Shown: in pieces, positions 1-272 of the stretch | Layout of the letters: the number at the start of each line of letters is the position of its first letter | Numbering within the stretch: position 1 is the first letter of the stretch | DNA from: Escherichia coli | GTDB lineage: Bacteria > Pseudomonadota > Gammaproteobacteria > Enterobacterales > Enterobacteriaceae | NCBI RefSeq assembly: GCF_003334355.1 | Contig: NZ_QOWP01000118.1 | Length of the DNA stretch: 272 bases | Strand: one strand, 5' to 3' | The notes under the pieces: model-generated | Told to the model about the DNA's origin: nothing | Database searches by the model: none | The model's input: only the letters and a program-made list of their open reading frames with translations | Translations under genes and position numbers: made by a program

Positions 1-5
1 CAAAT

Positions 6-34
6 GCCTGATGCGCTACGCTTATCAGGCCTAC
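6..34 (+). repeat. REP palindromic unit, Z2-type (copy 1)
   Basis: GCCTGATGCGCTACGCTTATCAGGCCTAC. Stem 6-12 (gcctgat) pairs with 24-30 (atcaggc); inner stem gcg 13-15 pairs with cgc 19-21 around loop cta; CTAC tail at 31-34. Short PU lacking the 5-nt central insertion, which is the Z2 hallmark as I recall it. Confidence 0.85.
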
Positions 35-51
35 AGATTCTTGCGCCATTC
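35..51. other. Tail-to-tail inter-PU linker (17 bp, agattcttgcgccattc), between the CTAC tail of Z2 and the GTAG tail of Y; recurs at 128-144 and 221-237
   Basis: Conserved spacer between the two PU tails in all three units; the unit-2 copy carries two transitions (135, 142). Its size is consistent with the short linker motifs described for BIME-2, but I cannot assign the named motif (S, l or r) from memory with confidence. Confidence 0.6.
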
Positions 52-85
52 GTAGGCCGGATAAGGCGTTCACGCCGCATCCGGC
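52..85 (-). repeat. REP palindromic unit, Y-type (copy 1, consensus reads on minus strand)
   Basis: Reverse complement of 52-85 is GCCGGATGCGGCGTGAACGCCTTATCCGGCCTAC, the classic E. coli REP Y sequence. Outer stem 56-62 pairs with 79-85; inner stem ggcg 65-68 pairs with cgcc 73-76; loop ttca 69-72. Confidence 0.88.
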
Positions 86-98
86 AATGGTGACAAAT
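86..98. other. Head-to-head inter-PU linker (13 bp, aatggtgacaaat), between the Y head and the next Z2 head; recurs at 179-191 as agtggtggcaaat
   Basis: Conserved spacer joining consecutive units; the unit-2 copy carries two A to G transitions (180, 186). Positions 1-5 (caaat) are the 3' end of a preceding linker, which implies the array continues upstream of the window. Confidence 0.6.
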
Positions 99-127
99 GC
101 CTGATGCGCTACGCTTATCAGGCCTAC
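99..127 (+). repeat. REP palindromic unit, Z2-type (copy 2)
   Basis: Identical to 6-34. Confidence 0.85.
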
Positions 128-144
128 AGATTCTCGCGCCACTC

Positions 145-178
145 GTAGGCCGGATAAGGCGTCCACGCCGCATCCGGC
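145..178 (-). repeat. REP palindromic unit, Y-type (copy 2, loop variant)
   Basis: Same as 52-85 except T to C at 163 (loop ttca becomes tcca). Both stems intact. Confidence 0.88.
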
Positions 179-191
179 AGTGGTGGCAAAT

Positions 192-220
192 GCCTGATGC
201 GCTACGCTTATCAGGCCTAC
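192..220 (+). repeat. REP palindromic unit, Z2-type (copy 3)
   Basis: Identical to 6-34. Confidence 0.85.
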
Positions 221-237
221 AGATTCTTGCGCCATTC

Positions 238-271
238 GTAGGCCGGATAAGGCGTTCACGCCGCATCCGGC
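238..271 (-). repeat. REP palindromic unit, Y-type (copy 3)
   Basis: Identical to 52-85. The window ends one base after the PU. Confidence 0.88.
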
Positions 272-272
272 A

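Follow-up and report, generated by a model that had tools for sequence, protein, structure and literature searches.

Class 2 bacterial interspersed mosaic elements (BIME-2) are described, in the Gilson/Bachellier classification (PMC3333891), as Y and Z2 repetitive extragenic palindromic (REP) elements which alternate in inverted orientation, are joined by short linkers, are repeated in tandem and lie outside genes, and variation of their copy number between strains is among the described properties of the class (PMC3333891). The array of Escherichia coli K-12 that lies between yahG and yahI carries the name REP23 in the literature. Genome-wide Topo-seq mapping (Sutormin et al., 2018) found an excess of gyrase cleavage sites within BIME-2, chiefly at Y REP loops and mismatched stem positions, with a signal that increased when transcription was blocked; BIME-2 sites are preferentially located at borders between supercoiling regions. 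The REP-associated tyrosine transposase (RAYT) TnpA-REP acts on a REP with a 5′ GTAG and a non-complementary stem pair, together with an inverted REP that carries a CT cleavage site. Approximately 80% of annotated REPs are transcribed, according to the paper on naRNA4, which concerns REP325, another K-12 array, in the yjdM-yjdN spacer. REP hairpins are reported to protect upstream mRNA, and to reduce the translation of the upstream gene only when they lie <16 nt from its stop codon. Here we analysed a stretch of 272 nt of E. coli DNA (contig NZ_QOWP01000118.1; positions 1 to 272, hereafter the window). We conclude that the window is part of the REP23 BIME-2 array in the yahG-yahI spacer, and consider very probable the full account in which DNA and RNA roles would follow from its class and the coding sequence (CDS) annotated over it, yahH, is a by-product of the repeat.

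A megablast search of the window against 5,426 complete E. coli genomes detected similar arrays in all of them (5,426/5,426), at a median of 27 places per genome. A full-length match with 100% identity was found on the H1827/12 chromosome, between yahG and yahI, and the same spacer of K-12 is 99.2% identical to the window. The array comprises 3.9 units in K-12 and 5.9 units in H1827/12, and the window, with its 2.9 units, equals units 3-5 of the six-unit H1827/12 allele. In MG1655 the first REP lies 12-13 nt past the yahG stop codon and the array ends ~50 nt ahead of the yahI start. The genes yahD, yahE, yahF/fdrA, yahG, yahI and yahJ are all encoded on the window's minus strand, which thus corresponds to the sense RNA of the operon, and the plus strand, as given, is antisense. 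A reading of the letters alone (the sequence-only reading) had predicted an Escherichia chromosome and a spacer between co-directional genes of an operon, which is what the position between yahG and yahI of yahD-E-F-G-I-J turned out to be. That reading would have been contradicted by a non-enterobacterial genome or by a position within a verified protein-coding gene; the organism is Escherichia, and the overlapping CDS, yahH, is annotated with no verified protein. We also searched 100,044 species-representative genomes with a 50-mer spanning linker, Y REP and linker, too strict a query to serve as a species survey, and obtained one match, in Escherichia sp. E1V33, next to yahG.

Four of the features that define BIME-2 are present: Y and Z2 content, inverted alternation, tandem copies in variable number and an extragenic site. 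In the classification, heads are joined by a short S linker and tails by an s, l or r motif, and the long L linker that binds IHF (integration host factor) is lacking; the linkers here measure 12 and 17 nt, lengths that agree with this, and the window contains no long AT-rich L linker. Tandem Repeats Finder reported a period of 93 over positions 1-272 (2.9 copies, 95% matches, score 509), and a repeat search of the window yielded three 86-nt copies at 1-86, 94-179 and 187-272, with 97-100% identity. In each 93-nt unit a Z2 REP is joined tail to tail, through 17 nt of linker, to an inverted Y REP, after which 12 nt of head-to-head linker follow. The Z2 sequence in the literature, GCCTGATGCGCTACGCTTATCAGGCCTAC, is matched exactly on the plus strand by all three Z2 REPs, and the published Y sequence, TGCCGGATGCGGCGTAAACGCCTTATCCGGCCTAC, is matched on the minus strand by all three Y REPs with 1, 2 and 1 mismatches, all of them in the hairpin loop, while 200 shuffles used as a null control produced zero matches in either search. 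The orientations therefore alternate, Y on the minus strand and Z2 on the plus strand, and an inverted-repeat search agrees. The claim of the sequence-only reading that Y matches the classic REP base for base holds for the stems, and the Z2 match is exact as well; in the Y loop it fails by one or two bases. The window is thus an ordinary BIME-2 array, in which both the class and the element have already been described. Since the element has been published and named and its class is well studied, it adds little to the known biology.

The units are arranged in the order A-B-A, where units 1 and 3 are identical and the middle unit, B, is five transitions away. Unit 1 starts with the Z2 REP at 6-34, which ends in a CTAC tail at 31-34, and continues through a tail-to-tail linker of type A, AGATTCTTGCGCCATTC, at 35-51 (17 nt) into the first Y REP at 52-86, which shows GTAG at 52-55 on the plus strand, one loop mismatch and a 2-nt internal stem mismatch. 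A short, putatively S-type head-to-head linker of 12 nt, ATGGTGACAAAT, at 87-98 leads to the second Z2 REP at 99-127. There the tail-to-tail linker is of type B, AGATTCTCGCGCCACTC, at 128-144, two transitions away from type A, and the second Y REP, at 145-179, has two loop mismatches and a GTGGAC loop on the minus strand; the head-to-head linker of type B, GTGGTGGCAAAT, follows at 180-191. The third Z2 REP (192-220), another type A tail-to-tail linker (221-237) and the third Y REP (238-272) complete the window, which stops at the head of this last Y. On either strand the Y hairpin folds as RNA with approximately -21 kcal/mol and the Z2 hairpin with approximately -13 kcal/mol, and the folding z-score of the whole window against shuffles is -6.1 for the plus strand and -6.3 for the minus strand.

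The linkers around each Y REP are partly complementary (41-50 with 86-96, and 134-143 with 179-189; GCGCCATT / AATGGTG), which adds ~7 pairs to the predicted Y stem; the analogue in REP325 is GCACC / GGTGC. Four of the five differences between A and B units sit at paired positions of the predicted helix that extends the Y stem, and two pairs of changes, T49C with A87G and T42C with A93G, had looked like covariation. We examined this in a sample of E. coli alleles, Escherichia sp. E1V33 and 120 metagenome contigs. Across distinct contexts the combinations at positions 49/87 were C/A in 5, C/G in 5 and T/A in 5, so that the mismatched C/A is as frequent as the compensated C/G, and a compensatory change flanking the Y REP was rejected. 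The best linker helix averaged 5.5 pairs in cis and 5.1 in trans; with shuffled linkers the average was 4.3, and the cis value was reached in 15% of the shuffles. As cis is no better than trans, the complementarity probably came with the linker families and is not something that is maintained.

To follow the array between strains we used 1.5 kb of each flank, without the array, as the query, and sampled 60 records evenly down the ranking, 57 of which were informative. A flank-to-flank distance of ~34 nt, with no REP, was found in 7 of the 57 records. One Y/Z2 pair was present at 81-82 nt (18 records) and, with a different left flank, at 91-92 nt (8 records); two pairs at 185 nt (2 records), three at 267-268 nt (2 records), four at 359-360 nt (15 records, the K-12 form) and five at 453-454 nt (4 records, the O157 form). 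Strain B likewise has four pairs, and ST131 represents the single-pair allele. The remaining record measured 1,361 nt and held an IS621 insertion. Sequenced alleles carry 0, 1, 2, 3, 4, 5 or 6 pairs, mostly in 93-nt steps, and an insert of ~546 nt was also found. Besides H1827/12, the six-pair allele was seen in one XL1-Blue assembly, within a chimeric stretch. The three-pair allele arose from a crossover between K-12 units, and the six-pair allele is the K-12 allele with a duplicated B-A pair, and hence copy number changes by unequal homologous recombination between units. The REP-free allele occurs in 488 of the 5,426 genomes (~9%); in E. coli NMBU-W13E19 (L008:1489-1583) it consists of a single-copy 60-nt segment with an unrelated 11-bp GC-rich hairpin at the BIME position. 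The series of alleles with 0-6 copies constitutes a natural set for testing the effect of BIME-2 copy number on an operon.

The array is also a target of insertion sequences (IS). The natural target published for the IS621 bridge RNA is the 11-nt ATCAGGCCTAC, with a CT core, and it occurs exactly, once per Z2 REP, on the plus strand at 24-34, 117-127 and 210-220. A version with one mismatch, at position 4 (ATCCGGCCTAC), lies in each Y REP on the minus strand (52-62, 145-155 and 238-248). The sequence-only reading had proposed that strains be compared for IS insertions within the array, and these exist: IS621 resides in a Z2 REP of this spacer, at ATCAGGCCTAC, in three of the 5,426 complete genomes (C41, S3 and A19). 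The junctions of the occupied allele, GTAG/ATACTGT...ACAAG/GCCTGAT (slashes mark the junctions), place it at ATCAGGC^CTAC in the Z2 REP, and joining the IS621 ends at the yah spacer reproduces the published donor junction. In its uninterrupted form the C41 site is seq206 among the natural targets reconstructed by Durrant et al. Another of their targets, seq211, shares its tail-to-tail linker with the single-pair allele that is common (strain 504838; putative scar derivative E2863), and its sequence therefore suggests a second, independent insertion of IS621 at a REP of the yah spacer. Thus the array offers the IS621 recombinase three exact natural targets, and the site is used in the wild. Targeting of REPs by IS1397 is likewise confirmed in the literature, and the general statements of the sequence-only reading on RAYT/TnpA-REP, IS1397, IS621, mRNA stabilisation and translation control agree with published papers.

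In the E2863 sub-lineage (L006:1552-1561; 64 records with at least 99% identity to an 82-nt query) the Z2 tail reads GTAGATACTGATAAG in place of GTAGGCCTGATAAG. The additional ATA is what the IS621 end begins with in the occupied allele, and a deletion between two CTG triplets would yield exactly the E2863 sequence. IS621 is described as leaving no scar on excision; by its sequence, however, this tail resembles an imprecise loss of the element. A scar of IS621 as a general feature of single-pair alleles was rejected, as the Z2 tail is intact in four of five sequenced alleles of 81-82 nt.

Gyrase cleavage at this particular array could not be read from the Topo-seq map. The strain used was W3110 ΔlacU169, whose deletion spans MG1655 275,509-372,748 and thereby removes the array at 339,756-340,115; the Topo-seq supplement lists no site in the expected coordinate range, an absence that carries no information, given that the region is missing from this strain. 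The same holds for datasets from other strains with the lacU169 deletion (DY330, DH5α and many reporter strains), in which the whole yah region is missing and the array is invisible. Candidate features of a TnpA-REP substrate can be recognised in the window, namely the GTAG at 52-55, the 2-nt mismatch in the Y stem and the CTAC at 31-34 in Z2. As for transcription, the orthologous array of enterohaemorrhagic E. coli (EHEC) was covered by strand-specific RNA-seq and ribosome footprints (Neuhaus et al., 2016). The reads were mapped with Bowtie defaults and a uniqueness filter is unmentioned, and default mapping cannot place REP reads at this array. The prediction that the array is transcribed thus gains from published RNA-seq over the EHEC orthologue, in a manner that is suggestive rather than locus-specific. 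A search for promoter-like or terminator-like motifs on the operon sense strand in and near the array found none, and read-through from yahG is therefore the simplest expectation.

Together, these properties of the class and of the location allow the following working model. At the DNA level, the Y REPs would be preferred, transcription-independent sites of gyrase cleavage and may form a barrier to supercoils, and the REPs with a GTAG and a stem mismatch could serve as substrates of TnpA-REP. At the RNA level, the array would be read through within the yahD-J transcript, where its hairpins could block 3′-to-5′ exonucleases, to the benefit of the yahD-G mRNA upstream. As the distance from the yahG stop codon to the first hairpin is 12-13 nt, and hence <16 nt, this hairpin could stall terminating ribosomes and lower the output of YahG. 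The long untranslated, structured stretch that follows could attenuate the expression of yahI-J.

Several points weigh against this account. The functional roles proposed for the yahG-yahI copy would be carried over from the class. The best gyrase cleavage map is blind to this array, since the strain lacks the locus. The RNA and footprint signal in the literature may have been mis-assigned from the ~27 arrays of similar sequence that a genome holds. Ribosome footprints have been reported over the open reading frame (ORF) that spans the array (RPKM, the read count scaled to one kilobase and to a million mapped reads, of 56; coverage of 0.61), and translation is formally possible. Finally, ~9% of the genomes have no REP at this position and ~45% of the 57-genome sample have a single pair, so that whatever the multi-copy array may do for the host is dispensable.

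The CDS over the array differs between annotations. In MG1655 it is the RefSeq gene yahH (b0322), with a GTG start and 107 codons; K-12 annotations made with PGAP start it at an ATG 24 nt downstream of the MG1655 GTG and give it 99 codons, and in H1827/12 a 'hypothetical protein' of 161 codons covers the array. In O157:H7 strain 2149 (L010:1489-2002), owing to a 92-nt unit in the array, the PGAP YahH measures 297 nt, as compared with the 465-nt ORF of Neuhaus et al., and frame and length differ by lineage. RefSeq and PGAP still spread yahH and 'hypothetical protein' entries that track the repeat copy number, an issue of annotation hygiene. A homology of the YahH-like product to the cell-division inhibitor SidA was rejected as a false positive: the 160-aa product (L002:4846-5328) clears the curated NCBIfam cut-off for SidA (50.2 bits, cut-off 35), and this results from a 13-residue match summed over the repeats. 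The false positive could mislead automatic naming.

We considered whether yahH is nevertheless a real gene, as proposed by Neuhaus et al. (2016), who ascribe to the locus a 'triple function' in DNA, RNA and protein: the in-frame period of 31 codons would let the array be translated into a protein of 31-aa repeats, born from a selfish repeat, whose length tracks the copy number. Its frame (frame 2 of the minus strand) is open over the whole array, through 1-272 of the window, with a 31-aa tandem-repeat translation and no stop, it is annotated in RefSeq, MG1655 b0322 included, and the EHEC orthologue, X002, was judged 'quite probably' translated on the basis of its ribosome footprints, whose ribosome coverage value (RCV) was 0.64 (Neuhaus et al., 2016). 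However, frame 1 is equally free of stops, so that two of the three minus-strand frames are open across the window, and because the period is exactly 31 codons a frame that is open in one unit is open in all of them. The candidate starts fall within repeat units and differ between annotations, the length scales with copy number (99, 107 and 161 codons), and in about half of the genomes sampled, those with zero or one pair, there is no such ORF or it does not reach the length of one unit; the single-pair alleles, ~45% of the sample, carry no annotated CDS. The five-pair allele of O157 includes one 92-nt unit, which shifts the yahH frame, and all five differences between A and B units (5/5) are nonsynonymous in it. 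A Pfam search of the yahH reading found no match, and its sole NCBIfam match is the 13-residue stretch counted once per repeat, which is not a genuine one. No peptides of X002 were detected by mass spectrometry (MS), the footprint reads were mapped without a uniqueness filter, and the gene had earlier been dropped from the annotation for structural reasons (Neuhaus et al., 2016). A genuine yahH protein is thus highly improbable, and we judge the annotated CDS to be an ORF artefact, a by-product of a 31-codon period in stop-poor sequence.

With the BIME-2 array itself as the element, it may still be asked whether this copy acts at all, or whether it is a neutral passenger, a repeat that is selfish or hitch-hikes and that gains and loses copies by drift through unequal recombination, and possibly through TnpA-REP, with no effect on the yah genes or on topology. 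Presence and copy number are polymorphic, from 0 to 6 pairs, within one species, three genomes tolerate an IS621 that splits the operon spacer, and the REP-free allele has its own 11-bp hairpin, so that the BIME is unneeded there. Against this, BIME-2 and REPs have been gyrase-cleaved, mRNA-stabilising and translation-affecting wherever they were put to the test, and at this locus the first REP follows the yahG stop codon within <16 nt, because of which some effect on yahG expression is expected, whether selected or not. We therefore regard complete neutrality as unlikely. Still less credit, indeed hardly any, is due to the possibility that the array constitutes a set of naRNA4-like RNA genes, whose plus strand would be processed into ~70-nt Y-S-Z2 RNAs that bind HU and bridge cruciforms. 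The Rfam model of naRNA4 (RF02564) does match the plus strand twice, over Y REP, short linker and Z2 REP at 55-124 (78 bits) and again at 148-217 (72.4 bits), above the gathering score of 59.5, and the RNAs of REP325 are reported to bind HU and condense DNA (naRNA4 paper), HU binding and nucleoid effects having been reported for REP325 only. However, the strand on which these matches score runs antisense to the yah genes; on the minus, operon sense strand the model reaches 53.9 and 52.7 bits, under the gathering score. The sole promoter-like match on the plus strand (L004 9232-9205, ~90 nt off and inside yahI) agrees with 9 of 12 consensus positions, and promoter-like matches in that region are fewer than in its shuffles (3 found, 6.7 expected). 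At REP325 the naRNA4 matches score 95-111 bits and are sense to yjdM/yjdN, whereas those at the yah locus, with 72-78 bits, are antisense to yahG/yahI, and any Y-S-Z BIME would score. Since the REP325 matches are in the sense direction, stronger and with a longer Z, the naRNA4 match reflects a shared repeat architecture and is no evidence of an RNA gene here.

Two further observations concern sequences related to the array or its neighbours. A second match of 100% identity, in the XL1-Blue assembly (NZ_CP081007.1; L001:4861-5335), was rejected as a second locus and treated as an assembly artefact, because its surroundings are a patchwork of gene fragments and a single sequence occurs, in inverted copies, on its two sides. 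The final ~13 kb of this 'complete' chromosome, of which ~10 kb was examined, is pieced together from truncated stretches of IS, Rhs, phage and tRNA sequence, and the sequence that bounds the array copy on both sides is AT-rich; unplaced repeat contigs were probably joined at this end during assembly. Plasmid NZ_CP160122.1 carries a paralogue of the yah cluster with 85% identity, and at the chromosomal position of the BIME it has a 516-aa ORF between genes for a DUF1116 protein and a carbamate kinase (L012:2598-4148), for which an NCBIfam search yielded no match.

The array in the yahG-yahI spacer can finally be set beside the known systems it resembles. REP325 shares with the window tandem, inverted Y and Z REPs, short linkers and co-directional flanking genes. 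Its period is 100 nt as compared with 93 in the window, its linkers differ, and its Z hairpin is 7 nt longer than the window's Z2, in line with the longer Z of the naRNA4 family consensus. We take this long Z to be of the Z1 type. REP325 would then be classed, under the usual scheme, not as a BIME-2 but as an atypical BIME. In MG1655 (L020:5806-6385) its Z element has the long form GCCTGATGCGACGCTTGCGCGTCTTATCAGGCCTAC, yet it is labelled Z2 in the naRNA4 paper. The BIME-1 elements (RIP/RIB) have the Y REP in common with the window, and many Y REPs adjoin the long AT-rich linker CAATATATTGAATTTGCA... They differ from it in that their Y is paired with Z1 over a long linker containing an IHF site, in a single copy, whereas the window has Z2, linkers of 12 and 17 nt and tandem copies. 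The BIME-2 arrays at which gyrase cleavage is reported (among them sucC-sucB and tldD-yhdP; Espeli and Boccard, 1997; Sutormin et al., 2018) belong to the same class of tandem Y and Z2 REPs, and the Y loops and stem mismatches are present in the window as well. The closest relative is REP23 itself (MG1655 339,756-340,115; alias yahH/b0322, and X002 in EHEC EDL933), which shares the locus, the unit and the Y/Z2 architecture with the window; REP23 of K-12 has four pairs, in the order C-B-A-A on the window's plus strand, whereas the order A-B-A of the window is found only in the six-pair allele.

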